A stretch of DNA of 64,000 nucleotides from an uncultured bacterium (GTDB taxonomy: Bacteria > Fidelibacterota > Marinisomatia > SCGC-AAA003-L08 > GCA-2689995): positions 66,872-130,871 of the forward strand of contig CAZGWH010000001.1 in the NCBI GenBank assembly GCA_964529325.1, written 5' to 3'. Made by a program: the position numbers and the translations under genes. Shown here one piece after another: positions 13,729 to 60,100 of this stretch; the stretch's first letter is position 1; every line of letters starts with the position of its first letter. The notes beneath the pieces are model-generated. The model saw nothing but the letters and a program-made list of their open reading frames with translations, was not told the origin of the DNA and ran no database searches.

Positions 13729-14259
13729 ATGAAAATTATCAGTACAACAATTATATTACTTTTAAACATAGGTATTTTATTTAGCGAAAATACAGGGCTT
13801 CCAAATGTAAAATTAAAGGATTTCGATAAGAAAAGAGTTGCTATGAATACTCTGGCAAAGGATGGTCCTATTCTTATAAACTTTTGGACAATGGCATGCG
13901 AACCGTGCAAAAAAGAAATGAAATATTTAAATAAATTTCATAATAAATATGCAGAAAAAGGGTTTCAAGTATTTTCAATAAACATGGATACTCCTCGAAG
14001 TATGGCAAAAGTAAAATCATACATTAAGTCCACAGGATATAATTTTACAGTTCTTTCAGACCCTCGTTCAGAATCATTTAGAAAATTAGGTGCAAAAGCA
14101 ATGCCTCTCATATTATTAGTAAACAAAGATGGAAATATCTATAAACGACATACTGGATATAATCCCGGAGATGAAATTGGGTTAGAAAATGAAATTAAAG
14201 AATTAATTATTCATAATTATCCAGAAACAACTTTTGAATCAAAGACAGAAAGTAGATAG
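13729..14259 (+). CDS. TlpA/ResA-like periplasmic thiol:disulfide oxidoreductase (thioredoxin fold)
   Basis: Signal peptide, CxxC motif in FWTMACEPCKKEMP, and a cis-Pro region (AMPLILLVNKDG). Confidence 0.8.
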   Translation: MKIISTTIILLLNIGILFSENTGLPNVKLKDFDKKRVAMNTLAKDGPILINFWTMACEPCKKEMKYLNKFHNKYAEKGFQVFSINMDTPRSMAKVKSYIKSTGYNFTVLSDPRSESFRKLGAKAMPLILLVNKDGNIYKRHTGYNPGDEIGLENEIKELIIHNYPETTFESKTESR

Positions 14260-16361
14260 TGAAAATATATTTAATTATTTTTTTATCGTTCACCTTTACT
14301 CAAACGGATATTAATTTTTCCCTTGAATCTAAATTTGGTGAAGGGACTAATATTACAAATGAAGGAAGTACAGAAAAGCCTTATAATTATTTTGAAAATA
14401 TTCTAGATGTAAATATGCAATTTTCTTCTGGAGTTTCATTATGGTCACAATGGGAATATAGTGAACCACCCATTTTTGGTGTAAATAAAAATGGTCTAAA
14501 TAAATTTTATTTTGAGTATAGTGAGGATGTGTTTAATGTAAAAGTGGGTGATATTTATACATTATATGGACGCGGTCTTTCATTAAATATGGTGATAAGC
14601 CAAAATGTTGATTTAGATAATAGTATTAGAGGATTAGAATTTGAGTTTTACCCTTCAGATTATCTGCGTGTTTTTTCGCTTGTTGGAAAAGGCAGATATG
14701 ATTATCGGACAAACCCAGCACAAACCATTTCAGATAGGTGGGTAAATAATCGTGTTTATAGCATTGGTATGGATTATGATTTTAATCAATTGGGAATATT
14801 TCAAATGTATTATTTAAATCAATCTTCTGAAATTGATGAATCCATGATGAATTTATATAATAATGAACATCTTGATACGCGTTTAGGAAAAGAGTTTTAT
14901 GACAGAGTTTCTTATGAAGAATATCGAACAGATACTCTTTCCTCCAAAATAATAAATTTAAATTGGACAAATTCTATTGGACTGATTGACTATTATTTTG
15001 AGTATTCAGGAAATAATTATTCAAAATTATTAGGAGATGATACTGATGGATATAAAATTTATGGCTCACTCTCCACCTATCTCGCTGGATTTGGAATTAC
15101 CTATGAATACAAAGATTATAATGAACCATATTTTATTCAATCATTGGGTGGTGCACCAATTGTATACCGAGAATCTACTTCAATACTAGGTTCACGATAT
15201 AATCATTCAATGAATTTTAATGATGAAATAGGACATCAAATTGAAATCCAATATGCAATTAATGAAAACTTGAATTGGATGGTAAACGCATCGCAATCAA
15301 ATTCTCATGTTGGAAAATATTTATCAATTGATATTGATTCATTAGCAAATGAATCAACGCAAAATTATATCCACTCAAACCCATTTAATTTAGTGTTTAT
15401 GCAAGGAAATGATGAGGATTTAGCCTTTAAACCATTTAGACAATTTTACACTGAATTTTCAGGGTATACATTTAATAATCATTTATTTTTTCAAGTTGGA
15501 ATTGACCTTTTAGATGATGTGTTTAAATATCATGATACAAAAGTTTATGATTATGGTGATATTAATATTGATAATTATATTCATTTTGTAGATTCGTCTC
15601 TTTCTATTTGGAATATAGAAGAATTGAATCTTGTCACCAAAAATTACAATAATAATCTGTCAAATTTTAGCGGGATATGGAACGATTATTTTAATTTATG
15701 TGAAAGTTTAGGGGATTATATTTGTCCTGGACAAACAGCGAATGAATATGCAGACTCAACCATATTTTCAAGTTATGGAATTAGTTATGAAGATTCATTA
15801 GCAAACCTTTTTTCAAATTATGAATTTAATTATGAAAATAGAGAGAATGAGTTAAAAGTTGAATCTACAAAAGCTAGATCTGATAGCTTAAAATCAAAAA
15901 AGTATGAATATACAGAACAAACAGTTGTCACTTTACCCATGCGTTTTTCATGGAATTTTGGTGATGGTAGTTCAATTTCTACCTATTGGGAACATCAATG
16001 GAGAAATGTAAATGCAAGCCATGATATTTTATTACTCGATGGAACTATTGATAGTAGGCTAACAAAAATCGAAAATTACTATAATCAGTACTTTTCAATA
16101 TCATATCGTCATCCTAAAAAGTGGTCAATCACTTTATTTTATGACGGCGAAACACATGATAAAAAATTAGGTGGTGAAATTTGGTCTGATAAATATAATG
16201 ATTGGAAAGGTGCAGATTTCACCTTTGACATGAATTCAAGTAGTCAATTATCTATTTTTTATGGAAGCCAAAAAGGTGGGAGAATTTGTGCAAATGGTGT
16301 GTGTGCTGACCAACCCGGATTTAAAGATGGTTTTAAATTAACATATCGAAGCTTCTTTTAA
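14259..16361 (+). CDS. Putative outer-membrane beta-barrel protein, function unknown
   Basis: GTG start overlapping the TlpA-like stop (taGtg). It has a signal peptide, an aromatic/Asn/Tyr-rich alternating pattern, and a C-terminal ...LTYRSFF with terminal Phe, an OMP signature. Confidence 0.5.
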   Translation: MKIYLIIFLSFTFTQTDINFSLESKFGEGTNITNEGSTEKPYNYFENILDVNMQFSSGVSLWSQWEYSEPPIFGVNKNGLNKFYFEYSEDVFNVKVGDIYTLYGRGLSLNMVISQNVDLDNSIRGLEFEFYPSDYLRVFSLVGKGRYDYRTNPAQTISDRWVNNRVYSIGMDYDFNQLGIFQMYYLNQSSEIDESMMNLYNNEHLDTRLGKEFYDRVSYEEYRTDTLSSKIINLNWTNSIGLIDYYFEYSGNNYSKLLGDDTDGYKIYGSLSTYLAGFGITYEYKDYNEPYFIQSLGGAPIVYRESTSILGSRYNHSMNFNDEIGHQIEIQYAINENLNWMVNASQSNSHVGKYLSIDIDSLANESTQNYIHSNPFNLVFMQGNDEDLAFKPFRQFYTEFSGYTFNNHLFFQVGIDLLDDVFKYHDTKVYDYGDINIDNYIHFVDSSLSIWNIEELNLVTKNYNNNLSNFSGIWNDYFNLCESLGDYICPGQTANEYADSTIFSSYGISYEDSLANLFSNYEFNYENRENELKVESTKARSDSLKSKKYEYTEQTVVTLPMRFSWNFGDGSSISTYWEHQWRNVNASHDILLLDGTIDSRLTKIENYYNQYFSISYRHPKKWSITLFYDGETHDKKLGGEIWSDKYNDWKGADFTFDMNSSSQLSIFYGSQKGGRICANGVCADQPGFKDGFKLTYRSFF

Positions 16362-16459
16362 CAATATTGTTACAAATTATATTAATATAATTTATATAAA
16401 CTATTATTATATTTAAAGTAACTAAATATAAATAATTTAACTAAATAAGGAATTGAAAT

Positions 16460-18031
16460 ATGAAAAAAATATCTCTACTAATATTACTAACTTTATCGAT
16501 TGTAAGTGCACAAACTTATGATATGGGAGATGTAATTAGTGAAGACCATCAAAATCAAAGTTTTGATATTTGTTACGGTGACGACAATTCATTATTTCAA
16601 TTCTCTGAATTAAATGGTGCGTTAAATAATGATGGCAAATATTGGATAACCTTCATTGATATGGCTGCAACTTGGTGAGGCCCATGTTATAACGACATCG
16701 GTTCGATGGACGCACATGCTGATTATTGGATGGAACCTGAAGATGGTGAAGATAATAATGAAAATGGTTTAGTTGATGAAAGTGTAAGATATATGGTTGC
16801 ACTTGCTGATATTGGTCAACCATATACGTGTGAACAATGGGGAGATGCAGGTATTAACGGAATTCCATTAATTGTTGAAGACCCTGGAACTATTTTTGGT
16901 TGGCTACACGATTCATATAATGCATACCCTTCTTATGCTATTTTAGATCATGAAATGAGGGTTGTTGATAAACCATGGCCTTATGGCTCAACTGATAATT
17001 TAATTCAAAGTCTATATGAAACTTGTGAAGAAGCAGGATTATGTGGAGCAGTATCTGATTTAGACAATGACGGACTAGTTGGTTCAGATGATAATTGCCC
17101 GAATGATTATAACCCAAATCAAGATGATAGTGATGATGATGGATTGGGTGATTTATGTGATGAATGTTTAAATTCTTCTGGTGATTTAAATGAAGATGGG
17201 TTTATTAATATTACGGATGTAGTTGTAACGGTAAACATTGTATTAAATGGTGGAATAAACTCAAATGCATTTACAGAATGTGAAAAATCCAATGCAGATT
17301 TTACAGGTGATGGAATAATTAATGTATTAGATATTATTCAAGTTGTTAATGTAATTTTGGGAAATACTGCACAATACTGCAATTGTAATAATAGTAATTT
17401 AGATTTAAATAAAATCTCTGGTAGTGTTGAAGCATCATTTATAACACAATCAAATGATTTAATTATTAATTTGGAATCTACTCATTCATTTAGTGGTGTA
17501 CAATTTTTTATTCCCGGTAAAAATACTGATATTAAATTACTTGACAATAGCCATATTAATTTAGAAGCTAACTATTTTAATAATACGACAACTGTAATTG
17601 CCTATTCATTATTAAATCAAGCATTTGATAGTAAAAATGTAATATTTACAATAAATAATGGAGCACATTTAAATATACAAGATATTCAAATAATTATTGG
17701 AGATACCCATGGAAGGGAAATGGAACTTATAAAATCTAATAATGGTACTGTATTCCAAAATGGACCATATGTTTTTGAATTATCAAATATATATCCAAAC
17801 CCATTTAATCCAACAGCAGAAATTAGTTTTTCGCTTGCAGAGGCTGGGTACATTACATTAATGGCGTATAACACAAATGGACAACAAGTGGGAACTATAT
17901 TTGATGGCTATCAAGAAAATGGAATTCATTCTTATTCTTGGCATGCAAGTAATCTGCCATCAGGTGTATATTATGTCAAATTGTCTGATGGTGTTAATCA
18001 ACAATTTAAAAAAGCAATTTTATTAAAATAA
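16460..18031 (+). CDS. Candidate selenoprotein: secreted thioredoxin-fold (W-U-G-P-C) / TSP type-3 repeat / dockerin-like / T9SS C-terminal-domain protein, with the in-frame TGA at 16676-16678 read as Sec
   Basis: Track ORFs 16460..16678 and 16706..18031 are in the same frame, with TGA as the only interruption. Read-through gives IDMAATW-[TGA]-GPCYNDIGSMDAH. The paralogue at 18048..19541 aligns as IDMSATW-C-APC. Also present are a signal peptide (VSA|Q), a TSP3 motif (DNCPNDYNPNQDDSDDDGLGDLCD), dockerin-like DLNEDGFINITD / DFTGDGIINVLD, and a T9SS CTD (YPNPFNPTAEISF...GVYYVKL...ILLK). Confidence 0.6.
16676..16678 (+). other. In-frame UGA, candidate selenocysteine codon
   Basis: TGA sits at the position of the N-terminal Cys of the CxxC redox motif. 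The aligned codon in the tandem paralogue is TGT at 18264-18266. Confidence 0.55.
16683..16718 (+). promoter_or_regulatory. Candidate bacterial SECIS-like stem-loop
   Basis: Hand-folded. The apical stem is CATCG (16696-16700) / CGATG (16704-16708) with loop GTT. CG (16693-94) / CG (16711-12) pairs lie after a small internal loop. The lower stem is CATGT (16683-87) / ACATG (16714-18). The structure starts 5 nt after the UGA. Confidence 0.4.
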
Positions 18032-18047
18032 AGAAAAGGAAGATTAT

Positions 18048-19541
18048 ATGATAAAAAATATAATTATAGGATTCGCATTAATTTCAACCATTTTTCCAGC
18101 AATTTATGGAGTTGGTGATGTAGTTAGTTCGTCTCATCAAAATGTGAGTTACCCCGTATGTTATGGTGAATATGAAACAGAAGGGTTTAAACTTTCGGAT
18201 TTAAATGGTGAATCAAATGGAGGAGTTTTTAAAGTATCTTTAATAGATATGTCTGCTACATGGTGTGCCCCATGCGTTGCTTTTATTCCTGAGTTTGATG
18301 GAATTGTTGATGATTGGTCTGATAATGATGGAGTATTTATTTTTAATGCATTAATGGATATGAATCAACCCTATTCTTGTGAACAATGGGGAGATATGGG
18401 TATTTCAAATATTCCTGTTATTATTGACGATGGTAATGGTGGTGGTAATAGTATTTTTAGTTTTTTTAATACAGGAAGTGCAATTCCAAGTACGGTATTT
18501 ATTGATCATGAAATGAGAGTTCAATATATGTCAAATCAAGTTACGAGTAATCAAGCCAGTAATATAATTCAAAATATGCTAGGTGATTGTACTATGTGTG
18601 GTAATCCTGATTATGATAGTGACTTTGTTTTAAATGAGACCGATAATTGTCCAAATGATTATAACCCAGACCAAGAAGATGAAGATTATGATAATCTTGG
18701 AGATGTATGTGATTCTTGTCACAATATGTCTGGAGACCCTAATGATGATTTATTTGTAAATATTACAGATGTAATTTTAACTGTAAATCTAATTTCAACA
18801 GGAGGAATAACTTCAGAGTTTTATAATGATTGTGAAAAAGCAGATGCAAATTTTAATAGTGATGATACAATTAATGTTTTAGATATCATTCACATGATTA
18901 ATATAATTCTTGGTAACACTGTGTTAAACTCTAATAATGATAATAAGGCTACAGTTAATTTCAATCAAGATAATAACCAATTAAAAATTACGATTAACAG
19001 TGATATTGAAATTTCGGGAATACAATTAAATTCTAATTCACAATTTTCAAATGTTAAATTATTACAAAATAATGAAAAAGAATTAATTTCAAATGAAGAT
19101 ATTATATTAGCTTATTCATTACAAAATATTCCATTTGAAAATAATAAAATAGATTTGGTTTTAGATAATGCTCATAATTTAAATATTGATGATATTCAAA
19201 TAGTAGTGAGTGATATATTCGGAAATGAATTAACATTAGTAAAATCAGAAAATGGTAATATTTATAGTAATGGAGTATATGAGTTTGAATTAGATAATTC
19301 ATATCCAAATCCATTTAATCCAACTACAAAATTGAATTTCTCCTTACCTATGGATGCTAATATTCAATTAGTTGCATATAATATTCATGGGCAAAAAGTT
19401 CAAGAAATTTATAGTGGATATAAGACTGTTGGCTCTCATCAATTCAATTGGAATGCATCTCATTTATCAAGTGGAATTTATATTGTTAAATTAATTTCAG
19501 AAAACCATCAAACAAGTATTCAAACAATACTAATGAAATAA
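18048..19541 (+). CDS. Secreted thioredoxin-fold (WCAPC) / TSP type-3 repeat / dockerin-like / T9SS C-terminal-domain protein (Cys paralogue of the upstream gene)
   Basis: 497 aa with a signal peptide. Contains IDMSATWCAPC, DNCPNDYNPDQEDEDYDNLGDVCD, DPNDDLFVNITD / NFNSDDTINVLD, and a CTD (YPNPFNPTTKLNF...GIYIVKL...ILMK). An RBS-like AAAGGAAG lies upstream, and the gene is 16 nt from the previous gene. Confidence 0.8.
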   Translation: MIKNIIIGFALISTIFPAIYGVGDVVSSSHQNVSYPVCYGEYETEGFKLSDLNGESNGGVFKVSLIDMSATWCAPCVAFIPEFDGIVDDWSDNDGVFIFNALMDMNQPYSCEQWGDMGISNIPVIIDDGNGGGNSIFSFFNTGSAIPSTVFIDHEMRVQYMSNQVTSNQASNIIQNMLGDCTMCGNPDYDSDFVLNETDNCPNDYNPDQEDEDYDNLGDVCDSCHNMSGDPNDDLFVNITDVILTVNLISTGGITSEFYNDCEKADANFNSDDTINVLDIIHMINIILGNTVLNSNNDNKATVNFNQDNNQLKITINSDIEISGIQLNSNSQFSNVKLLQNNEKELISNEDIILAYSLQNIPFENNKIDLVLDNAHNLNIDDIQIVVSDIFGNELTLVKSENGNIYSNGVYEFELDNSYPNPFNPTTKLNFSLPMDANIQLVAYNIHGQKVQEIYSGYKTVGSHQFNWNASHLSSGIYIVKLISENHQTSIQTILMK

Positions 19542-19570
19542 ATTCAATTTAAATTTTCAGTTTATTTTAA

Positions 19571-19596
19571 AGGCAGAGTTATCTCTGCCTTTTTTA
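19571..19596 (+). terminator. Rho-independent terminator
   Basis: AGGCAGAG-TTAT-CTCTGCCT followed by TTTTT, lying 30 nt after the stop at 19541. Confidence 0.75.
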
Positions 19597-19672: not shown

Positions 19673-22366
19673 TTGGAACCCCTCTATATTACAAATACCA
19701 TTAAAAAATATTGTTATATATTTATTATATTTTCAATATTCTTATCACACATAAATGCAAGCAGGCTTTGGGGAATTATTCAAAAAGAGAATAAACCATT
19801 TATACATGATTATGAAATAATTTATTCTCAATTACTAGAATTTCAACTTCAAGGTAATTTAGGAAATTATCACGATTGGCCATATAATAGTAATGACGGT
19901 TGGGGATTTGTAAAATATAAAAATAAAATTCTTAATGATTCATTTGATAATATTCATTCTTCAATTACAGCAATCAATGACTCTCAATTTATCCAAGAAA
20001 TCCATAATATATTAAACCCAACAAATAATATTCGGATTGCATTTGGGCATGTTCGAAATGCAACTACAGGGGCTTTTTCTATACCTAACCCCCACCCATT
20101 TACTTATCAATTTAATAATAAAACATATTCATTTGCACATAATGGGACAATTGACAAAATCGGATTATTAAATTTATTAACAGAAAATGGAACCGATTCT
20201 ACATGGATTTTTAATAATCCACCAAATTCATATAATTGTGGTAATTGGAATGATGAAGGATTTAATTGTTTAGTTGATTCAGAATTATATTTTTTATGGA
20301 TTATAAAAAATATAATTGATTTAAATGATGATTATAGGGGAATTACGAATGCCTTAAATATAATTGAAAATACCGAATTTGATATCGATAATATTAATGG
20401 AGAACAACGAAATTTCATTATGTCCAATGGTACGGAATTATTTGCTTATAAATCTTCAGATGACATACATGAAGAATCTAGATATGAATTATTTTATCAA
20501 TCATTTCCAAATCATTTTTCTATAATGTCAACACCACATTCAGTTGATAGTGGATATATTCCAATAAATGATCAAGAATTATTAATTTTTCGAAATGATG
20601 TAATTACACCAATATCTTTATATCCAGTTAATGAAATGAATTATGAAAATGATTATCAAATACTTCAAGATATAATTACAATAAATAATTTAAATGAAGT
20701 AAATTGTAATTCATGTAATAGTGACGGTATATTACAACCATTGGAATTAGGAAATCAGGTTTGGGAAAACAATCGTTTAATTGAATTTAATATTTCAAAT
20801 TACACTACGGATGAAATTAAATACTATCCGAGTTCAATAAAATTATTATCTGAATTAGTTTCTTTTAATGGACCTTTCACTGAAATAATTCCTCAACTAA
20901 ATTGTGTAGAATTAAATAGTCCGTTATCAGATTTTTTTCAATGTAATTCTTTAGGTTGTTCAGATCCAATAGCATGTAATTATAATTATTTTTCAAGTGG
21001 AAATGATGGATCATGTGAATATTCACCCAACAATTATGATTGTGATGGAAATTGTTTAACAGCAATTAATGAAAATAATGATTGTTTAGAAATTTATGAA
21101 TTTGGTTGTTTAGATACACTGGCTTTTAATTATAATCCATTAGCTATTATTGATAATGGAAAATGTATGTATGATAATATTATTTTATTTAAACGAGGAA
21201 ATAATTTAATCAGTTTACATGGCATTCCTGAAACAAGTAATACCGAATTGTTAATGCAACCACTTGAAGAAAGTGGTCTTGAAATAAATTTTATATTAGG
21301 GCAAGGCATGGGATACTTTAAAGTAGATGACGAATGGTCAGGGAACTTACATTCACTCGATATAAATTCAGGCTATTGGTTTAATGTCGGTTCAAATTTC
21401 ACATGGCATATTCCTTTACAAAATAGACCTAATTTACCAACGGATTGTATTTCATATAATCTAGAGGAAGGAAATAATTTAATATCTTATTCAGGTGAAG
21501 ATGATAATTTTACAATTAATTCATTAAATGGTGATGTATTTTCTGAAAATTTTCAATTTATTTTAGGACAAACCGTCGGATTATTTAATACAGAATCTGG
21601 ATGGTCTGGCAATTTATTTAATTTAAAAAATAAAAAAGGGTATTGGGTAAATTCCCTTTACCCAATTGATTTTTATTGGGGTACAAATTGTGAAGAATCA
21701 ACAATTATTGAAGGGTTAAATAAAAATGTTCAATCTAAACTTTCTTATAATCAATCGACAAATCAAGCCTTTTATTTAATTGATGAATTAATAATTGAGA
21801 ACTATTCACCGAATGAAAATGATATATTAATCGCTTATCATCAAGACCAATTAATAGGTAGTACTAAATGGTCTATTGAAAAAATAATTCTACCCATAAT
21901 GGGCAGAGATTTATCCTCTCAAACGGAAGGATATATTGAAGAAGGTGATGTTCCAGAAATAAAATTATACCAATATAATACAGGAAAACTTATTAATTTA
22001 AATGGTGACATTAACTCTTGGCATAATTTATCTGTAAATCTAATAAATAATCTTCATACAAAAACAGAAATTACACCAACCCAATTCAACATAAATCCTG
22101 CATATCCCAACCCATTTAATGCGAAAACAACATTGAGTTTTACAATACCGAATGAATCACAAATAAATATTGAATTATTTGATTTAACAGGGAAAAAAAT
22201 AAAGTCAATTATAAATACAATTTACAAACCTGGAAATCATAAAATCCTAATTAATGGGAAGAATCTCTCAACAGGAGTTTATATCATTAAAATATCTATG
22301 TTCAAAAATTCAAATAGTTTATCACCTATTTTTCAAAGCACTCAAAAAATTATTTTATTAAAATAA
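19673..22366 (+). CDS. Secreted YafJ-type class II glutamine amidotransferase-like (Ntn hydrolase) domain protein with Cys-rich linker, two GNNL...GYW modules and a T9SS C-terminal domain
   Basis: TTG start. Signal peptide ...FLSHINA|SRLWG. Motifs align to my recollection of E. coli YafJ: DGWG, GHVRNATTG...NPHPF, FAHNGTI, VDSELYFLW. CTD: YPNPFNAKTTLSF...GVYIIKI...IILLK. Confidence 0.7.
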   Translation: MEPLYITNTIKKYCYIFIIFSIFLSHINASRLWGIIQKENKPFIHDYEIIYSQLLEFQLQGNLGNYHDWPYNSNDGWGFVKYKNKILNDSFDNIHSSITAINDSQFIQEIHNILNPTNNIRIAFGHVRNATTGAFSIPNPHPFTYQFNNKTYSFAHNGTIDKIGLLNLLTENGTDSTWIFNNPPNSYNCGNWNDEGFNCLVDSELYFLWIIKNIIDLNDDYRGITNALNIIENTEFDIDNINGEQRNFIMSNGTELFAYKSSDDIHEESRYELFYQSFPNHFSIMSTPHSVDSGYIPINDQELLIFRNDVITPISLYPVNEMNYENDYQILQDIITINNLNEVNCNSCNSDGILQPLELGNQVWENNRLIEFNISNYTTDEIKYYPSSIKLLSELVSFNGPFTEIIPQLNCVELNSPLSDFFQCNSLGCSDPIACNYNYFSSGNDGSCEYSPNNYDCDGNCLTAINENNDCLEIYEFGCLDTLAFNYNPLAIIDNGKCMYDNIILFKRGNNLISLHGIPETSNTELLMQPLEESGLEINFILGQGMGYFKVDDEWSGNLHSLDINSGYWFNVGSNFTWHIPLQNRPNLPTDCISYNLEEGNNLISYSGEDDNFTINSLNGDVFSENFQFILGQTVGLFNTESGWSGNLFNLKNKKGYWVNSLYPIDFYWGTNCEESTIIEGLNKNVQSKLSYNQSTNQAFYLIDELIIENYSPNENDILIAYHQDQLIGSTKWSIEKIILPIMGRDLSSQTEGYIEEGDVPEIKLYQYNTGKLINLNGDINSWHNLSVNLINNLHTKTEITPTQFNINPAYPNPFNAKTTLSFTIPNESQINIELFDLTGKKIKSIINTIYKPGNHKILINGKNLSTGVYIIKISMFKNSNSLSPIFQSTQKIILLK

Positions 22367-22374
22367 AAAAGAAA

Positions 22375-24132
22375 TTGAAATCAATATTGAAATATTTATC
22401 TGGGTTAATTATAATAATTTCAATATTTTATTTTTGGATATTACCCTTATTTTCTCAAGATATCATTTTTATTAATGGTAAAATTATTACAATGGAATCA
22501 AAAAATAGTGAGTTTGAAGCTATTTATATTAAAGATGGGTTAATTTTTGAAATTGGTAATACCGAAGATATTATTAAAAATGATAATTGGAAAACGAAAG
22601 TAATAGATTTAAAAGGCAAGACGATGATGCCTGGGTTTATTGAAGCACATTGTCATCCAATCGGAACTGCAATAATTAATCAAGTCTTAAGCATTAGTGG
22701 ATATAACTATAATTCACGGGCAGAAATAATAAATGCAATTAAAACGGAAATTAAAAATCCAAATAATGATGATTGGCTAATTGTCTTCGGGTGGGACCCC
22801 GTAATGGTTGATGATTTAGAAAACCCATCATTATCTGAATTAAATGACATTTCACCAAACAGACCGTTGCTCATACTTACTCAAATGATGCATCATGGGT
22901 TTATCAATTCGGCAGGATATAAAAGAGCTAAAATAACTAAAGATTATCCAGAATTATCAGGAGCTGGTAAATTTTTAAAAGATGATAATGGTGAGCTTAA
23001 TGGAGTAATTTATGAAGTTACAGCTCTTCAATATATTTTAAAACAGCTCCCAAAAACACCATCATCAGCAATTAAATTATTATTAAATATACAATATTCA
23101 AAATATGCTAAAGCTGGTTTTACCTCAATTGGAGTTCTAGGTCCAATAGAAAAAGGTGGCTATCCTTTAGATTTCATGTATAATTTAGCTTCTCAAAAAA
23201 CAATGCCTATTCGAACTTTTATATATGGATTAGAGAACCAAATTGATAGTGCAAATTGGAAACCCAATTATGGTCATGATAATTTCCGCCTTAAAGGAGT
23301 AAAACTCTATATGGATGGTTCGCCATACACGGGTGGTGCTGCATTTAAAGATGCCTATGTAAATTCACATATTACTTTAAATCGAATTGGGTTAAAACCA
23401 AATCATTATGGTGAAGTAAATTATAGTTTAAATGAATTCATTCCAATTGTTGAAAAATACCATAATCAAGGCTTTCAAATTGCAACCCATGTGCAAGGTG
23501 AAATTGCAATAGATATCGCTTTAGATGCAATTGAATATGCATTGAATAAACAACCAAGAGAAAATCACAGACATAGGTTAGAGCATAATGCATTAATCAC
23601 AACAGAACAAATTAAAAGAGCAGAAAAATTAGGTGTAACCCTTAGTATATTTATTGACCATATTTATTATTATGGTGATAAGTTAGACCAAATCGTTGGT
23701 AAAGAAAGAACACAACGATATATGCCTTTAGGAACTGCAATGAAAGTTGGAAATTTTACAACTATTCATACAGATAATCCCGTTACGCCTGTAAATGCTC
23801 TACGGCCAGTAGAAACTGCAATTTTAAGAAAGACACGAAAAACAGGGCAAATAGTTGGAAGTCAGGAAAGATTGTCTAAATTTGATGCATTAAAAGCAAT
23901 TACCATAAATCCGGCATGGCAATTTATTGAAGAAAATAATATAGGCAGTTTAGAAATAGGTAAGTTTGCAGACTTAGTTATTTTATCAGAAAACCCGTTT
24001 GAAATAGATGCTGAAAATTATCAAAACATTAAAATTGAAAGTACTTGGTTGTCTGGGAAAAAAATAAATTCTTCAATATATAATTGGACAAATTTTAAAT
24101 TATCTATTCTTACTTTATGGGAAATGATTTAA
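22375..24132 (+). CDS. Metal-dependent amidohydrolase (Amidohydro_3-like)
   Basis: 585 aa, TTG start, N-terminal TM/signal anchor. Contains the HxH metal motif (IEAHCHPIG) plus later ATHVQGE and HRLEHN, typical of the amidohydrolase superfamily. Confidence 0.8.
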   Translation: MKSILKYLSGLIIIISIFYFWILPLFSQDIIFINGKIITMESKNSEFEAIYIKDGLIFEIGNTEDIIKNDNWKTKVIDLKGKTMMPGFIEAHCHPIGTAIINQVLSISGYNYNSRAEIINAIKTEIKNPNNDDWLIVFGWDPVMVDDLENPSLSELNDISPNRPLLILTQMMHHGFINSAGYKRAKITKDYPELSGAGKFLKDDNGELNGVIYEVTALQYILKQLPKTPSSAIKLLLNIQYSKYAKAGFTSIGVLGPIEKGGYPLDFMYNLASQKTMPIRTFIYGLENQIDSANWKPNYGHDNFRLKGVKLYMDGSPYTGGAAFKDAYVNSHITLNRIGLKPNHYGEVNYSLNEFIPIVEKYHNQGFQIATHVQGEIAIDIALDAIEYALNKQPRENHRHRLEHNALITTEQIKRAEKLGVTLSIFIDHIYYYGDKLDQIVGKERTQRYMPLGTAMKVGNFTTIHTDNPVTPVNALRPVETAILRKTRKTGQIVGSQERLSKFDALKAITINPAWQFIEENNIGSLEIGKFADLVILSENPFEIDAENYQNIKIESTWLSGKKINSSIYNWTNFKLSILTLWEMI

Positions 24133-51765: not shown

Positions 51766-54700
51766 TTATTTCATTAACACAATTTTCTGTGAAGATTGAA
51801 ATAAATCACTTTTAAAATTAACAATATATACGCCACTTGGATGATTTACAGCATTCCATTTAATTGTATGATATCCTGATTCAATATGTCCATCTATTAG
51901 TGTTTCAATTAATCGACCGTTGAGGTCAAATATCTGTAGAGACATTGCGTGTAATGTCTCAGGTATACCAAATTTAATTGTTGTTTCAGGATTAAATGGA
52001 TTAGGATATGCATTTGATAATTTCCACTTCTCTGGAATCACATCTTGAATATCCATTAACTTTTCAATAGATGTTACGCCTAAAGGTGACCATGGATAAA
52101 TTTTATTTGAATATCTATCTTCTGTTAAATTTATTTCAATACCATTATTTTTTATTAGTGTAAATTCAGGTGTATCTCCTATTTCACAGAATCCATCTGT
52201 ATCTTCAGTTAAATCTTTCCCCATTACAGGGATAGCTGAATGTTTACCATTCCATAACCCCGATCCCACATACACATCATTACAATAGGCAAGGATTATA
52301 TCTCCATTTTCTGCATTGTCAATTTCTTCAATTAAGTAAAATGCTTGCTCTGTTGATTGTACAAATTGGTATTCTTCTGGTATTTGATATGTCTCTTCCA
52401 TTCCAAGACCACTACTTTGTGGATTTGCACAATTATCATTTCCCCATGCAAACTGTGGATGTTCACCAATTCCATTTAGCCAATACCCTTTACTATTTTG
52501 CAATGAAACTAAATTTCCACTCCAACCATCTATGGTTTTAAATAAACCAAGTCCCTGGCCTAAAATGAAGTTGAAATTTTCCGTCGCATATTGTTCTCCT
52601 CCTAATGCTTCTAATGTAGCAATATTACCTTCACCCCATTTAAATGAAACTAAGTTATTTCCGTCTGAAAGTCCATATTCTTCACAGTTATTTATCATTT
52701 GTGAATATGAAATCTCCCGAGTTTGTGCTTCATCACCTTCATAATTTACCCAGTATCCTGAATACTTGTTTAAATTAACTAAATTACCACTCCATCCTTC
52801 ATTAGTATTAAAAATACCAAGACCCTGGCCAAGTATGAAATTAACTTCACTAGTTCCATTTAAAATATTTTCTAAAAAATTAATACTATTATTATCTTCT
52901 AATTCTCCAGGAAAACTCACAAGATTATTACCACCTTGAAAATCAATAATTACAATTTGACCATTATTAACTGTTACATCAAATCCATCAGTTATCGTCT
53001 CAACACCATCAGATATAGTGTAACTAATTGAATATACTTGTCCTGCATTTTCTTCGAGAGGAGACCAATTTATAATACTTCCTTCAATAACCATTCCTTC
53101 AGGTCCTGATATAAATGAGAAACTAATATCATCACCATCTACATCTTCTACTATAATTTGATATTGGTAAATTGATCCAACATAGGCATACACAATTGGA
53201 GATGATAATATTTCAGGTGCATCATTTACAGCAGAAATAGATATAGCCAATACCCTTGAATATATATTATGCTCTTCCTGTCCATCATTTGCTGTAATGG
53301 TAATATTTTCTTCTCCATTGGCATTTTCAATAGCAGTTATTATAAGATTACCATTGTCGTCTAATGTAATATTTACTAAATTAGATTCCGATGTTGTAAA
53401 ACTTATAACTTGATTAGACTCATTTTCAGGATGATTTATTTCTGTGGTAATGTTAATTATTTCGGTAAAATCTTCCGTTTGTTCAATACTTGTTGCACTC
53501 AAATTAAATTGAGGCATATCATTTACAGAAGTTACGATTAATGTAAATTCAGTTGTACTACTTTTTTGATTATTTTCATCATCATCTGTTGCAGTTAATG
53601 TAAGTGTTTCAGTTCCAAAATAGTCTTGCATTAAATTAAAACTCATTAACCCATTTGAAAATGAAATAACCGAGCCATTATTTCCAGAAACAGCAAACTC
53701 CATATTTGTAAATTCTGTACCTATGTCAGATACATAATCTTCAAGATTAATTGAAAAAACATCACTGTCTTCTTCTACGCTTATACTCGGTATTGCTGTA
53801 ATAACTGGCGTATCATTATTTACCGTTAGAAAAATTTCAGTCGTGGCTGAATATTCATGCAAAGAACCGACATCAGTTGCAATGATTTGCAATGCAGAAC
53901 TACCTGTCCATGTGGGATCTACAGCAGTTATAAAACCATTGACTTGGTCAGAAAAATCAACAAGGAAAAATCCTGCATTAATTAAATAAGGATTATCAGG
54001 TATTCCATTACTTGAATTTGCTGAAAATGTTAAATTTGCACTGGTGGGATATATATTTCCTCTTAAATCATCAAAGAATTTAAATTTAATTTCCTGTCCA
54101 TTTGTATTGGAGTAAATGGTCATAAAATATACCCAATTACCTGCAAAATCAATTGCAGTAGCAACTCCTCTAAGTTCACCATTACTAAATGCACCTAAAA
54201 TATGACTATTTCCTATTGCAGGGTCACCACCTGATTTAACAGACGCGGTAATGGTCATTGAAAGTTCAAAACCCGCTGGATTAATATTCCATGTTGGAGC
54301 AGGTAATGGTGATTCAAGAGCAGGAAAATCATATTCCCATGCAATATCATCACCGTCAAGTTCAATGATATTATCATTTAAATTTATAGGTGTAAAACTC
54401 TGTCCTATTTCTATTTCTTGGTCTGGGAAATTATCAAGAGAAGGTGCATGGTCTAAAGGTAATATTGAAAATATTACACCTTGTGAACCTGAAAATGATA
54501 ACTCAGATTGATCTGTTGCAGTAAAGAAAATTGTTTCGTTGCCAAGCCATTCATTATTTAATGGTGTAATTGTCGCAATACCATCAGTTAAGTTAACACT
54601 TAGATTCGTGTTCCCACTAGATGACCACTGTATTGGGTCATCATCTACTTCAAGTAAAAAGTCATTTAAATTAATATCATTAAATCCAATACCTTGCTCA

Positions 54701-56988
54701 GTGATTTGGTTTTCAATACCTTCTACAACTGGCATGTGATCAGGTATAATTGTAAGAGTCACGGTATTACTTGCTGAGTAATTATTAAGTGTTCCTTGAT
54801 CTGTTGCTGTAAAAGATATACTCTCTACACCATGCCACTCAGGATCAACAATGGTAAAACCAGCCATATCATTTTCATCAATATCAACCAGTATTGCACC
54901 TGCTTTTAATCCAAGTGGATTCTCAGGTTCTCCCTGTGCAGTATTTGCTGAAAATATTATACTTTGATTGACAGGTAATATTCTACTTGAATTATCATCA
55001 AAAAATTTAAGTTTTATCTCTTCTCCATTCCCATTGGCATATATGGTTAAAAAATACATCCATTTTCCAAAGACAGGAAGTGCAGTAGTCACTCCTCGTA
55101 GTTCTCCATTTGAGAATGCACCCAGGGAATGACTAAATCCTTCTGTCTCAACACCTAATGCTTCTACAGTCGCAGTTATTGTCATTGATAATTCATAATC
55201 AGATGCATTTACATTCCAGTTTGGATTACTCTCTGTATTCTCTTGAGCGTCAAAGGCATAACTCCATTTAACATCATGTCCATCGATTTCTGTTAAATGA
55301 TTATTTAAATCAATATCATCAAACATGCCAAAAAAACCAATCAATTGACTATCCATTGCAGTTACCTCTGGAGCATTATCTGGAATAAGTACGGTAAATG
55401 TAACTTCATCAACGCTAAAAAATTGACTCTCCGTTTGATCTGTTGCGGTAAATGTAACCGTCTCAAAGCCTATAAAATCAGTAAAGCTGATTGTAGCAAT
55501 GCCACCTATTATGCTAATATCTAAATTTGTATTTCCAGATACGGTCCATACTATATCATCACCATCCACTTCCGTTAAATAATCATTTAAATTAATACTT
55601 GTAAAGTTTCCATCACCTTCAATTGTTTGGTTGGGTATATCACTTACCACTGGATTATGATCTGGAAGTACAGTAAATACTACTGGATCTGATGCTTCAT
55701 AATTATTAAGTGTCAATGGTTCAACCGCTCTAAAAGATACCGTTTCACTACCTGTCCATTCAGTATCAACAATACTTATAGATGCAATATCATCTTGAAT
55801 ATCAATAAGTAGTCGTGCAGAATTAATTTCATACGGATATTCAGGATCGCCCAGTGCAGCATTTGCTTCAAAAGAAACCACTTCTACACTAGGAAGTAAA
55901 AATTGATCATTACCATTATAAAACTTAAATTTAATTTCATCATTATTTGAGTTTGCATATACGGTTAAAAAGTAAACATCATGTCCCAGTACATATAAAG
56001 ATGTTGCTGTCCCTCTACATTCATTACCTACAAATGCTCCCAAAACATGACTATTCCCTATCGCTTCAATACCATTACTATTTACAATGGCGGTAAATGT
56101 CATACTAAGTTCATAATCAGATGCATTTACTTCCCATGACGGATATGCTTCATTTTCTATTTGAGGTAATATGGTATATTCCCAATTAATAACATCACCA
56201 TCTTCTTCAATCAGATAATCAGATAAATTAATATGTGCAAATGTTCCACCTGCACCAACAGTTTGGTTTGGAATATCTATTAAGGCAGGTTCATTATCAA
56301 TGCCCCATATTGTAAATATTGCTGTAGTTGAAGCAGATAGTAAAGCGTCTGTATTATCCGTTATGGTAAAAGTAATTGCTTCATTACCTGTCCATTCACT
56401 ATTTACAGGAGTAATAGTTACCGTATTATCATTTGCAATTGTTACCGATAAATATTCATTACCACTAATTGATATCGTAACATTATCCTCATCTTGTAGA
56501 TAAATAAAATCATCTAAATCAAAGCTAGAAAAACTATTTCCAATTTCTATTTCTTGCTCGTAAATTGAATAAATAACAGGTGGGAAATCAAAACCAATAT
56601 ATCCACTAAACGCATACGGATTATCTGGCTGTCCCATACTTCCATTGGGAATAAATGCTTCACTATTTGTTAAATTATATTCACCATCGGTAAATACTCT
56701 AAATTCTAAATCTTCACCAGGCTGATTTGCATATACGGTAATAAAATATAAATAATTATCTAACGCATATATTGGCGTAGCAAATCCTCTACACTCATCG
56801 CCCACAAATACACCGACTTTATAATCAGCATGATCTACCACTTCATTATTAATATTTAGTGTACTGGTAAAAGTCATCGATAATGCAAAATCTGCAGGAT
56901 TATATTCCCAGTCTTGCGATACACCAACACTAAGTAATAAAATTATCTGTAATGAAAATAAATATGTTCTCATGATATTTCCGTTCAT
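51766..56988 (-). CDS. Giant modular T9SS-secreted surface protein (1740 aa)
   Basis: Signal peptide, then four copies of an uncharacterised ~105-aa domain alternating with Ig-like modules. Also VNDxP-delimited cadherin-like modules, a He_PIG-like Ig domain (ISFSFISGPEGMVIEGSIINWSP), two GNNL...GYW modules, and a T9SS CTD (YPNPFNPETTIKF...GVYIVNF...IVLMK). Confidence 0.8.
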   Translation of the reverse strand: MNGNIMRTYLFSLQIILLLSVGVSQDWEYNPADFALSMTFTSTLNINNEVVDHADYKVGVFVGDECRGFATPIYALDNYLYFITVYANQPGEDLEFRVFTDGEYNLTNSEAFIPNGSMGQPDNPYAFSGYIGFDFPPVIYSIYEQEIEIGNSFSSFDLDDFIYLQDEDNVTISISGNEYLSVTIANDNTVTITPVNSEWTGNEAITFTITDNTDALLSASTTAIFTIWGIDNEPALIDIPNQTVGAGGTFAHINLSDYLIEEDGDVINWEYTILPQIENEAYPSWEVNASDYELSMTFTAIVNSNGIEAIGNSHVLGAFVGNECRGTATSLYVLGHDVYFLTVYANSNNDEIKFKFYNGNDQFLLPSVEVVSFEANAALGDPEYPYEINSARLLIDIQDDIASISIVDTEWTGSETVSFRAVEPLTLNNYEASDPVVFTVLPDHNPVVSDIPNQTIEGDGNFTSINLNDYLTEVDGDDIVWTVSGNTNLDISIIGGIATISFTDFIGFETVTFTATDQTESQFFSVDEVTFTVLIPDNAPEVTAMDSQLIGFFGMFDDIDLNNHLTEIDGHDVKWSYAFDAQENTESNPNWNVNASDYELSMTITATVEALGVETEGFSHSLGAFSNGELRGVTTALPVFGKWMYFLTIYANGNGEEIKLKFFDDNSSRILPVNQSIIFSANTAQGEPENPLGLKAGAILVDIDENDMAGFTIVDPEWHGVESISFTATDQGTLNNYSASNTVTLTIIPDHMPVVEGIENQITEQGIGFNDINLNDFLLEVDDDPIQWSSSGNTNLSVNLTDGIATITPLNNEWLGNETIFFTATDQSELSFSGSQGVIFSILPLDHAPSLDNFPDQEIEIGQSFTPINLNDNIIELDGDDIAWEYDFPALESPLPAPTWNINPAGFELSMTITASVKSGGDPAIGNSHILGAFSNGELRGVATAIDFAGNWVYFMTIYSNTNGQEIKFKFFDDLRGNIYPTSANLTFSANSSNGIPDNPYLINAGFFLVDFSDQVNGFITAVDPTWTGSSALQIIATDVGSLHEYSATTEIFLTVNNDTPVITAIPSISVEEDSDVFSINLEDYVSDIGTEFTNMEFAVSGNNGSVISFSNGLMSFNLMQDYFGTETLTLTATDDDENNQKSSTTEFTLIVTSVNDMPQFNLSATSIEQTEDFTEIINITTEINHPENESNQVISFTTSESNLVNITLDDNGNLIITAIENANGEENITITANDGQEEHNIYSRVLAISISAVNDAPEILSSPIVYAYVGSIYQYQIIVEDVDGDDISFSFISGPEGMVIEGSIINWSPLEENAGQVYSISYTISDGVETITDGFDVTVNNGQIVIIDFQGGNNLVSFPGELEDNNSINFLENILNGTSEVNFILGQGLGIFNTNEGWSGNLVNLNKYSGYWVNYEGDEAQTREISYSQMINNCEEYGLSDGNNLVSFKWGEGNIATLEALGGEQYATENFNFILGQGLGLFKTIDGWSGNLVSLQNSKGYWLNGIGEHPQFAWGNDNCANPQSSGLGMEETYQIPEEYQFVQSTEQAFYLIEEIDNAENGDIILAYCNDVYVGSGLWNGKHSAIPVMGKDLTEDTDGFCEIGDTPEFTLIKNNGIEINLTEDRYSNKIYPWSPLGVTSIEKLMDIQDVIPEKWKLSNAYPNPFNPETTIKFGIPETLHAMSLQIFDLNGRLIETLIDGHIESGYHTIKWNAVNHPSGVYIVNFKSDLFQSSQKIVLMK
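53980..56913 (-). repeat. Four protein-level copies of a ~105-aa domain (W-x-[YV]-N-x-x-x-[FY]-[EA]-L-S-M-T ... [LV]G[AV]F ... [EG][CL]RG ... Y[FL][ILM]T[VI]Y[AS]N ... F[KR][FV][FY])
   Basis: Copies lie at about 56605-56913, 55825-56136, 54913-55221 and 53980-54294. Copies 2-4 are spaced about 305 aa apart, forming a super-repeat with two Ig-like modules. Coordinates were derived by residue counting and checked at the W codon 55216-55218. Confidence 0.7.
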
Positions 56989-57149: not shown

Positions 57150-60100
57150 TTATTTCAATAATACCATTTTTTTAACGCTGTTATACGCAGGAGTAATCAT
57201 CCTGTAAAAATAAACACCGTTTGAAAGTGGTAATCCTGACATATCACTTGCATTCCATACAATGGTATGATAGCCAGCTTCCATCTGTCCATTCACAAGT
57301 TCAGTTACCATTCGTCCCTTTAAGTCATACACTGCAATTGATACCTGTGCATTATCTGGAAGATCAAAACTAATCGTTGTTTCTGGGTTAAATGGGTTTG
57401 GATAGTTCTGAGCCAAGTTATAACTCATTGGTACAAAGCGTACTTCATATTCAAGTTGTGCACCAGATCTATCAACCACAATAATATTACTTATTGTTTG
57501 TATATCATCAGTTGTAAATAGTATTCCATCATTAATGCCTTTTCCATTGGTATTCATCATCACTGTTTTAAGTGAACCATTCATATTATGAGTAAAGAAC
57601 TCATGTTTAGAATCGATCATTTCGATTCCTGGTAAGTCAAACTGGATACCTGCGATATTATTACTTGATGTAATGTAAACTTCATTACCCTGTACTTTAA
57701 TATCAACAACTAAATCATTATCTGCTCTTACCATTGGAATATCTAAGATGATAGATACCATCTCTACAATGTCAGCAACATTGATATCTTCATCACTGTT
57801 GATATCTGCGACTGCAAATTCATGCACTGAAGGTTGTTCTACATCTAAAATGTAGTTTACCGTTTGTAATACATCAATCACATTTAGAACACCATCAAAT
57901 GATACATCACCCACGGGTGGTTCTGCATTTAAGCTAAATGGAGTAAGTACATCACCTACATTTGCATTTGCAGAAAATGCAGTCTGCTCATAAACTGACC
58001 AGATAATATCATCTTCGGCATCAAACAATTTATAATAAATATCCTCATTTGGTGTATTACTATAAACCATTAAGAATGCTGAATATCTATCTAATGATTC
58101 AATGTATATCGGTTGTGCAACACCTCTGCACTCTTCAACCATTCCATTTTCAGTTTCAACAAGCGTAAATGCACCAATCATATCAGTTTCACTATTTAAT
58201 GATAATCCATTTACAAGCCCAGTTGCAGTCACTGTCATACTATGTTCATATTGATTTACATTCACATTCCAATTTGGAGCATTTAATGCAAGTGGTGATT
58301 CATAGATTTCGTCTATTTCATCACTATCTCTACCCGAAAGTTCAAATGGATAATTTAAATCACCATCCCAAAGAGATTTTAACATATATCCCTGTTTGGG
58401 TGACATATAATTAAGCGACCCAATCCAACCTAAACCTTCAACAAACATGGAGAATGCAAATTGACTTTTCACAATATCACCCGTTGCTGAATTTAATGAT
58501 TCAAGTGCATCATTTACAGGCATACTAAATTGAGAAGAATAACCCACCCAATTCCAACCTGGAACCACTTTTACAGTATCAAGTTCAACATTCACAGGAT
58601 AACCGACCATTTCCATTTCATCTGGATTGGTTAAGTTAATTAAATACATCGACTCATTTGAAAACTCAGATAGTGTTCCTACCCAACCAAAGCCAGAAAC
58701 ATATTGAGCAAACGAAGTCTGATCTTTTATTTGATCACCACCCGCTGGATTCATATTCGATAAAATATTATCCAAGCTCATATCATCATTTTCTAAATTA
58801 AGTGAAAACCAAGTATAACCAGCAGGATAATCCATTGATGAAATAACCTGACTTGTTGCTGTAATAGTTGCTGGACTTGTCGGTGTACCATGAGAGGCAT
58901 TGGCCTCAAATGTATATGTCTCATCAATCCACCCAAGTTCTCTACAATCTGACGCATCCCATACTCTAAATGAAAGCGCTTCACCTGATGGTTGATTGGA
59001 GTACACTGTTAAAAATACTTCATACGCATGAGTATTTGCTAAATCATCTAATGCTTGAATATAATCAACTCGTGCAATACCACGCATTTCATCACCCACA
59101 AATACACCTACAATATCATAAGCATCCTCAGAAAGTTCACCTTCAGTAGATAATGTAGCTGTAATATTCATGGTATATTGATAACTTGCAGGATTTAATG
59201 TCCATTCAGGTTCGTAACATAATTTACGAATATCAATATTCATTGGCTCATCACCCATGGTTCCTGATGCATAAAGCGTAGTTTGATATTGACCAAAATC
59301 AAGGCCTTCTACTAAACTAATTGAAACATCTTGAGCAGACCCAGGAGTAAGCGTTCCATTTAATGGAGATACTTCTAACCATGCTGGTAAAGGTAGTGCA
59401 TCACCACTTGGGATTGCACCTTCCCGTCCATTAATCATTTCATACGACCGATTTGAGCCACCATTATTGACGAGTTGTCTCTGTGTAGAATATTCTTCAT
59501 CCACCCAAATTACAATATTATCAATATTGGTTCCAGACCATTCGATTGGATTTCGATTTACAAAAAATTCCCATACAACGGGCTCTGTACGCGTATTCCC
59601 ATACATATCTTGAAGATTATGAATCTCGGCTCTAAATGTTTGATTTTCAATCCAGCTATTTGCTGGAGCAGGTTCAATCGTAATTGTATTAAACCCACAT
59701 GTATAGGTGAAGTCCAATGGATTACCTGTAACGGTATTAAATAATTGAATATCTCCTGCACCTTGATTAATTTCACCACATTGAACATCTTCATCAAATG
59801 ATGCACCAATAAAATCATCACTTGCTAAAATACCACCTGCTGGTTCTGTTAACCCAAAGACCTGAGGTGCTGACCTGTCAATCAATCCAGTAACCACTTC
59901 AGATGTACCTGCATATTTACCTTCTGTACATTGTGCTTGAGTACGCAATTCATATTCTCCATCAATTACAATTTCTGGATCTATATTAAATGGTAGTAAT
60001 ACATAATCATCAATCAAATCAACTGTTGGAATAGATTGAGTTGAAAACCAATCCCCTCCATCCGCTGGACGATATTGTAAATCAATATCAGTGAAGAATG

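Follow-up and report, generated by a model that had tools for sequence, protein, structure and literature searches.

The region 16460-18031 of the DNA analyzed here (a 64-kb stretch of contig CAZGWH010000001.1, called the window below, to which all coordinates refer unless another locus is named) very probably encodes an exported 523-residue selenoprotein of a Marinimicrobia (SAR406) bacterium, which is the best explanation of the evidence taken as a whole. From the comparison of homologous genes, we conclude with high confidence that this is a genuine selenoprotein gene mis-split by annotation pipelines. The family was predicted in 2008 in the Global Ocean Sampling (GOS) selenoproteome (PMC2398784), and thus the central finding is a confirmation and not a discovery. 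The additions that appear to be new are (i) the placement of the family in Marinimicrobia, (ii) the reading of its published 'Unknown_3' domain as a TSP3 module plus a dockerin, (iii) a type IX secretion system (T9SS) tail with the surface location that it predicts, (iv) tandem arrays of selenocysteine (Sec, U) and cysteine copies, and (v) an operon with TlpA-like and DUF6029 genes. Relative to the 2008 prediction, these additions are incremental but testable.

The reading frame extends from the ATG at 16460 to the TAA at 18029-18031, and its sole break is the in-frame TGA at 16676-16678, which takes the position of the N-terminal redox residue in W-[TGA]-G-P-C (...FIDMAATW*GPCYNDIGSMDAH..., the read-through beginning FIDMAATW*GPCYNDIGS). 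The mechanical list of open reading frames (ORFs) accordingly contains two pieces, 16460..16678 (72 aa) and 16706..18031 (441 aa). The initial annotation had described this split, had located the TGA at the N-terminal redox position, and had reported TGT at the aligned codon of the tandem paralogue; all of this is borne out by frame reading, the paralogue (18048..19541) being ...LIDMSATWCAPCVAF... with TGT at 18264-18266. A Shine-Dalgarno-like motif precedes the first ATG, and inspection of the sequence ahead of the internal ATG at 16706 revealed no motif comparable to AAGGA.

Comparison of the aligned column in 207 homologous gene copies, drawn from at least 60 Marinimicrobia metagenome-assembled genomes (MAGs) or marine metagenome contigs, revealed by motif scan 155 copies with TGA, 42 with TGT and 10 with TGC. 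The domain-alignment scans of metagenome and genome collections yielded 145 loci. Of the two patterns used for scanning, one had been back-translated to contain Cys, a bias against TGA. The TGA is retained down to ~23% protein identity, with intact frames and a protein conserved on both sides of the codon. The proposal that the N-terminal redox residue of a UxxC motif is encoded here by a Sec codon is thus upheld by TGA in 155 copies against TGT or TGC in 52. The residues C38, W72, U73, Q120, P121, C124 and W127 are invariant in the family, and C76 and P157 are nearly so.

The way in which public collections present the family is consistent with these counts. The first protein search returned 6 relatives, 52-83% identical to the target, all beginning at the Met that follows the TGA; in the contigs of 4 of them, the aligned codon is an in-frame TGA in 5 of 5 homologous genes, with the motifs W*GPC, W*PPC, W*DPC and W*GTC. 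Single-sequence word-index protein searches gave 6 and 2 matches only. In an exhaustive search of 1.84 billion cluster representatives with the Cys paralogue as query, 77 of the best 150 representatives were cut exactly at the site, 12 had 'W' there and ~49 had C. The 'W' is attributed to the code-4 models that metagenome gene finders apparently apply to short contigs. Public calls for the family (e.g. P0001-P0069, P0079-P0112) are either split at the TGA or have Trp at the active site ('SWWxxC'). In one locus (L139 ~9874) and in the proteins P0082 and P0094, the motif is shifted to U-x-x-x-C (SW*PPTC, SWWGPSC).

The whole gene, including the TGA, was found in 8 independent assemblies (JGI, ENA and Logan samples) with 0 mismatches in 1572 positions; a sequencing error concealing TGT or TGC, feared at the outset, is therefore excluded. 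More generally, the gene could be a pseudogene, or two small genes, created by a nonsense mutation or by an error of assembly or sequencing, as would fit the splitting of the gene by gene callers and the lack of significance of its single-sequence RNA fold. This explanation is effectively refuted by the persistence of the TGA in 155 copies from very divergent relatives and by its identity among assemblies. Moreover, a product of 441 aa would be missing both the signal peptide and one half of the fold. Conservation extends over the 8 codons that separate the TGA from the internal ATG, and the resolving Cys is among them.

A variant genetic code, in which TGA would specify Trp or Gly and the motif would be W-W-G-P-C or W-G-G-P-C, is in keeping with the several public calls that give Trp and with the AT-rich genome (the window is 30% GC). 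Nevertheless, the 43 long ORFs of the window end in TAA (32), TGA (9) or TAG (2), the TGA stops often being part of ATGA overlaps, and TGA breaks no other gene of the window, which indicates that the standard code applies. Since the codon also aligns with Cys in 52 homologues, and not with Trp or Gly, and the Trp calls have their own explanation in the code-4 models, we assign next to no weight to this reading. Scanning the 64-kb window for in-frame TGA codons that join open stretches revealed no further selenoprotein genes; only the TGA described here has open stretches of at least 50 codons on both sides and is not antisense to another gene.

The initial annotation had pointed to covariance analysis downstream of the TGA as a means of recognizing a bacterial Sec insertion sequence (bSECIS) element, and a comparative signal is indeed present there. 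We compared 122 unique TGA-containing copies (Sec forms) with 42 TGT- or TGC-containing copies (Cys forms) by folding over positions +14..+44. The mean local minimum free energy is -6.5 kcal/mol for the Sec forms vs -1.7 kcal/mol for the Cys forms, stems of at least 4 bp are formed by 98% vs 74% of them, and a G is located at the first or second loop position in 97.5% vs 12%. The loop in Sec forms starts mostly at +24 or +25. Different subfamilies have different stems at the same place: CAUCG-GUU-CGAUG, CAUAA-GUU-UUAUG, GUCUGA-GGC-UCAGAC, CCCAU-AGUUG-AUGGG and UGCC-GGA-GGCA. In a gap-free alignment of 50 sequences from the subfamily of the target, 87.3% of cells are paired, compared with 72.0 ± 1.4% after shuffling (0 of 500 shuffles as high) and 24-56% in slid controls, and double-sided changes are seen in 3 of the 6 hairpin pairs (e.g. 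CG 21, AU 19, UA 7). None of the 53 members of this subfamily, as defined by a peptide pattern, has fewer than 4 of the 5 core pairs; for the 38 Cys forms that have Ile in the corresponding place, the number is mostly 1-3 of 5. The published bSECIS model specifies a loop of 3-9 nt with G as its first or second nucleotide, a stem of 4 bp or more, a spacing of 16-37 nt, and an energy of at most -7.5 kcal/mol (PMC13188914). The geometry of the target hairpin (5-bp stem, GUU loop, 22 nt past the UGA) fits this model.

Assignment of the N-terminal domain to the thioredoxin superfamily, made in the initial annotation from the active-site motif, is supported by a family profile and a structure model of the paralogue; it is not recoverable from the target alone by Pfam. 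The N-terminal domain of the target has no Pfam match at E <= 0.01 and none in NCBIfam. Divergent members of the family exceed the gathering scores of AhpC-TSA and Redoxin (AhpC-TSA 42.6 and 44.4 bits vs 26), and a profile of 36 diverse family domains matched 4k9z in PDB with E = 2e-8, as well as 2lja and ResA 4nmu and 1st9. The AlphaFold2 model of the paralogous domain, built from 72 alignment rows (pLDDT 87.4, pTM 0.85), has a thioredoxin fold; it superseded an initial model from 11 sequences, in which the redox domain had a pLDDT of 49.5. The first redox Cys of the paralogue (C73) is immediately before helix alpha-1 (helix 54-70, model numbering), and the nearly invariant P157 of the family corresponds to the cis-Pro position. 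When the paralogue model was compared with PDB using Foldseek, the matches were led by Etrx2, ResA, DsbE, DipZ-C, DsbF and CcmG (probability 1.0, TM-score 0.75-0.81, target-normalised). The redoxin domain of the paralogue is ~41% identical to that of the target, and its Pfam family match is sub-threshold.

The modules flanking the redox domain argue for export. The putative signal peptide, recognized by eye, has a KK n-region, a hydrophobic core and a V-S-A cleavage motif, and the N-termini of relatives look alike. Of the downstream domains listed in the initial annotation, the dockerin and the T9SS sorting domain score above their cut-offs (for the latter, Por_Secre_tail PF18962 39.9 bits vs 27 and TIGR04183 34.9 vs 23), and the TSP3 repeats are confirmed in part: the target contains the motif without a Pfam TSP_3 match at E <= 0.01, one relative reaches the TSP_3 gathering score, and another falls just under it. 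The region of the paralogue equivalent to the dockerin domain was modelled with a pLDDT of 80-90. No family match in Pfam or NCBIfam was found for the middle region (~300-443). A homologous T9SS tail is present in 67 of 110 complete Sec forms and in 18 of 38 Cys forms, and many shorter family members stop after the dockerin. The combination of a predicted N-terminal signal peptide with a C-terminal PF18962/TIGR04183 domain is shared with the T9SS type A cargo of the Fibrobacteres-Chlorobi-Bacteroidetes (FCB) group. Five proteins of the window, the target included, bear such a tail, which implies a working T9SS in the organism; T9SS core genes were not found within the 64-kb window.

Long Cys-only relatives (680-787 aa) with a redoxin domain, an FG-GAP beta-propeller and a terminal dockerin were observed in the loci L035, L045, L050, L061 and similar ones. 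They are located outside the TlpA-DUF6029 gene cluster described below.

Several points count against the interpretation of the gene as an exported selenoprotein with a SECIS-directed Sec. The energy of the target hairpin is -4.2 kcal/mol alone and -7.0 kcal/mol with the possible lower stem, vs the -7.5 kcal/mol of the model, in a genome of 30% GC. When the 60 nt that follow the UGA are folded as a single sequence, the result is not significant (z = 0.79) and the minimum-energy structure is without the conserved hairpin; Rfam with permissive thresholds produced no match at the site, and the whole 64-kb window contains no Rfam family at gathering score and no tRNA gene. The sequences of the Sec and Cys sets are related by descent, which inflates the hairpin p-values, and the paired positions are coding, so that protein constraint could account for some of the covariation. 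ARAGORN found tRNA-Sec neither in the window nor in the related loci, 1.15 Mb in total, which cover family neighbourhoods only; selA, selB and selD are absent from the window, and tblastn with E. coli SelA, SelB and SelD sequences gave no match in the same 1.15 Mb. The sole literature trace of Sec machinery is an 'orphan SelD' listed for three SAR406 single-cell genomes (Peng et al. 2016). The structure model represents the Cys paralogue and not the target. Finally, 43 of the 110 complete Sec forms are without the T9SS tail, and thus not every family member would be displayed at the surface. We know of no path by which reducing equivalents could cross the outer membrane to a T9SS-displayed redoxin.

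Systems that recode UGA to Cys exist, using either a Cys-charged Sec-like tRNA or mis-acylation. Such a system could act here via the hairpin, constitutively or under selenium limitation; the failure to see Sec machinery in the window or related loci, the scarcity of selenium in seawater, and the adjacent Cys paralogue would all agree with it. On the other hand, TGA and TGY copies have been kept side by side in one lineage over long divergence, which argues that the two codons encode different residues. The family is also classed as a selenoprotein family by standard criteria (PMC2398784), and SelD is reported in SAR406 single-cell genomes. We therefore consider Cys insertion very improbable, and Sec remains our assignment of codon 73.

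Another possibility is a true selenoprotein that works in the periplasm like CcmG, ResA or TlpA and is reduced by the co-encoded TlpA-like protein, its C-terminal domain having some other role or being only partly functional. The closest solved relatives include the periplasmic or membrane-anchored ResA, DsbE, CcmG and DipZ, the tail is missing from the Sec forms counted above, and the supply of electrons is plausible in the periplasm, whereas no supply at the surface is known. However, the tail of the target exceeds both curated cut-offs, ends in the typical ...KKAILLK, and recurs on four other proteins of the window. In addition, Etrx2, which ranks first among the structural matches, is a thioredoxin exposed at the surface, and modules of the dockerin and TSP3 types are characteristic of proteins outside the cell. 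A periplasmic protein is thus a rather unlikely alternative, though the most serious of those considered, and we favor an exported protein probably attached to the cell surface.

Under the favored interpretation, UGA-73 would be recoded to Sec, the hairpin with the G-U-U apical loop probably serving as a minimal bSECIS for SelB/Sec-tRNASec. Sec would be the N-terminal attacking residue of U-G-P-C at the start of helix alpha-1 in a TlpA/ResA-type thioredoxin fold, which suggests a selenol/thiol-disulfide oxidoreductase cycling via a selenenylsulfide with C76. The signal peptide would direct the protein across the inner membrane, the type A domain would direct its export by T9SS and probable attachment to the cell surface, and the TSP3 and dockerin-like modules may mediate Ca-dependent docking. 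Together with the other products of its gene cluster, described below, the protein may, for example, mend or reduce oxidised substrates in the envelope or at the surface, as would be analogous to the pneumococcal surface thioredoxins Etrx1/2.

Etrx1 and Etrx2, the surface thioredoxin lipoproteins of Streptococcus pneumoniae (PDB 4hqs, 4hqz, 2yp6), are the best structural match (E = 3.6e-8, TM-score 0.76-0.78, target-normalised) and provide a precedent for a thioredoxin-fold reductase outside the cytoplasmic membrane. Both are fed by CcdA and reduce MsrAB2. They differ from the target in coming from a Gram-positive bacterium and in being lipid-anchored and Cys-containing. The ResA/TlpA/CcmG (DsbE) proteins share with the target a thioredoxin fold with insertions, a W-C-x-x-C-type motif starting alpha-1, the conserved cis-Pro position, and an extracytoplasmic location, which is predicted for the target. 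In contrast, these proteins use Cys, are membrane-anchored or periplasmic, and serve in the maturation of cytochrome c or Cu centres, whereas the target has Sec, the additional invariant C38 and C124, and long C-terminal docking and sorting modules; identity to them is below 20%.

Judged by sequence, the family is the GOS 'Prx-like 3' (PMC2398784), which was described as a marine-enriched UxxC family of 68 Sec sequences with a distant Redoxin/AhpC-TSA similarity (pfam08534, e > 0.001). Dataset S1 of that paper lists clear relatives of the target as '#Prx-like 3'; with one of these reads (JCVI_READ_1091138274397), the target shares 51% identity over 184 aa, U being aligned (E = 3e-64). The fusion of Prx-like 3 to an 'Unknown_3' domain having three conserved Cys, including a CxxC, was also published (Fig. 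S1D, PMC2398784); this Asp/Cys-rich and dockerin-like module corresponds to residues ~199-299 of the target, which match the Unknown_3 pattern (DNCPxxYNPxQxDxDxDGxGDxCDxC followed by dockerin-like repeats). The 2008 data consisted of short reads of ~1 kb or less, for which no taxon, sorting domain or genomic context was given. Thus, the view in the initial annotation that such a protein had not been described does not hold for the family, its UxxC motif and the TSP3/dockerin fusion, and it stands for the T9SS tail and the predicted surface location, which, like the taxon, were absent from the literature searched: no paper was found there that links T9SS or Marinimicrobia to the Prx-like 3 family or to any selenoprotein. 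A row 'Redoxin family protein, PF08534, UxxC' in a 2026 survey may correspond to the same family (PMC13188914).

A second marine UxxC family, GOS_C, is equated in the same survey with NF045500, the 'Omp28-related selenoprotein' (PMC13188914). The target shares with it the C-terminal TSP3/dockerin module (E = 1.2e-15, profile positions 273-376) and differs in the N-terminal catalytic domain, which is unrelated. Membership of the target in GOS_C/NF045500 was rejected, as it scores 57.8 bits vs the cut-off of 200 and matches only positions 273-376 of 377. The TSP3-like module of the target matches the C-terminal part of both NF045500 and MtsC, and the TSP3/dockerin module of the paralogue (18603-18911) also matches the C-terminal NF045500 positions. 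Since both the target and its paralogue match the C-terminal 100 positions of this profile, one docking module appears to be used by two unrelated marine selenoprotein families.

The target belongs to a conserved gene cluster (13729-19592 in the window; Table 1) with the order TlpA-like redoxin, DUF6029 protein, 1-4 Sec forms and 0-1 Cys form. Sec forms are located directly 3' of the DUF6029 gene in 66 loci, and the TlpA-like redoxin gene is upstream of DUF6029 in 40 of these 66, counted where the analyzed DNA covers it. The upstream TlpA-like redoxin is always a Cys protein (CEPC) across the loci, with no Sec version. DUF6029 shows HHpred similarity to plug-less homologues of the outer-membrane beta-barrel Wzi (PMC9603273). 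The loci L003 (1531-2454) and L085 (~9048), close relatives of the window, contain an extra Sec form, with W*PPC or W*VSC and no T9SS tail, between DUF6029 and the orthologue of the target. This copy is absent from the window, and hence the copy number of Sec forms varies between strains.

The products of the cluster (the TlpA-like redoxin, the DUF6029 barrel, the Sec form or forms, and the Cys form) may act jointly in extracytoplasmic redox chemistry. A more speculative proposal, which we regard as doubtful, is that the cluster forms a trans-envelope redox module: the DUF6029 barrel would dock or wire the Sec proteins at the surface, perhaps via the dockerin/TSP3 modules, so that reducing power of the periplasmic TlpA-like redoxin reaches the outside. 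If true, the module would be the first case of a selenoenzyme system displayed at the surface, and one of the most abundant heterotrophic phyla of the ocean would be a large sink for dissolved selenium that has so far gone uncounted.

A functional T9SS tail would place these selenoproteins outside the Gram-negative outer membrane and would raise a concrete, testable question, namely how a selenol/thiol centre is regenerated outside the cell. The presence of as many as four Sec copies in tandem at a locus, in a marine phylum that is abundant worldwide, implies a real selenium requirement of SAR406 that has not been attributed to it before. The public gene calls of the family are wrong, and a rule that combines TGA at W-x-x-x-C with the hairpin would mend hundreds of entries.

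Table 1. Features of the selenoprotein gene and its cluster (window coordinates; assignments of function are predictions)
Feature	Position	Strand	Basis
TlpA/ResA-like redoxin (CEPC), N-terminal signal or anchor, predicted to be co-transcribed	13729..14259	+	Pfam Redoxin, 85.4 bits
DUF6029 protein, predicted outer-membrane beta-barrel, immediately upstream of the target	14259..16361	+	PF19494, 60.9 bits
Shine-Dalgarno-like AAGGA, 8 nt 5' of ATG 16460	16447..16451	+	sequence reading
Complete selenoprotein gene, 523 codons, Sec at codon 73, TAA stop	16460..18031	+	frame reading
Predicted Sec-type signal peptide, MKKISLLILLTLSIVSA|Q	16460..16510	+	inspection only
TlpA/ResA-like thioredoxin-fold domain, residues ~20-195	16517..17044	+	family profile, paralogue model
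UGA taken as selenocysteine (U73)	16676..16678	+	Sec/Cys column, identity in 8 assemblies
Redox motif U-G-P-C	16676..16687	+	alignment, paralogue model
Possible lower stem of candidate bSECIS	16684-16688 paired with 16714-16718	+	folding
Candidate bSECIS apical hairpin CAUCG-GUU-CGAUG, loop 16701-16703, 22 nt after UGA	16696..16708	+	comparative folding
TSP3-like Ca-binding Asp/Cys-rich module, residues ~199-240	17054..17179	+	motif DLDNDG...DNCPNDYNPNQDDSDDDGLGDLCDEC
Dockerin type I-like domain, residues 241-299	17180..17356	+	Pfam PF00404, 29.4 bits vs 22.9 cut-off
Uncharacterised middle region, residues ~300-443	17357..17788	+	conserved in L003 and L085 orthologues
T9SS type A C-terminal sorting domain	17789..18028	+	PF18962, TIGR04183
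Tandem Cys paralogue, CAPC, same architecture	18048..19541	+	sequence, Pfam, alignment
Terminator-like hairpin and T-run ending the cluster	19569..19592	+	10-bp stem, 5 GC pairs, then TTTATTT

The genome matches are nearly all 'Candidatus Neomarinimicrobia', Marinimicrobia or SAR406 MAGs, together with the single-cell genome AAA003-L08; the best match is NIOZ-UU64, with 92% identity. Most of the remaining window carries housekeeping genes, such as those for DNA polymerase I, the trp operon, an oligopeptide ABC transporter, TatC, FtsY and UvrC. Downstream of the cluster, the gene 19673-22366 encodes an 897-aa protein with a class-II glutamine amidotransferase N-terminus (weakly EgtC-like) and a T9SS tail, an odd pairing if the protein is exported. 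A homologue of this protein was observed near the cluster, on either side, in ~10 loci; in the window, its gene is followed by an amidohydrolase gene (22375-24132). Two giant proteins with T9SS tails, of 1740 and 2243 aa, are encoded on the minus strand (51766-56988 and 57150-63881) and contain Big_9/cadherin-like and Laminin_G_3 domains.

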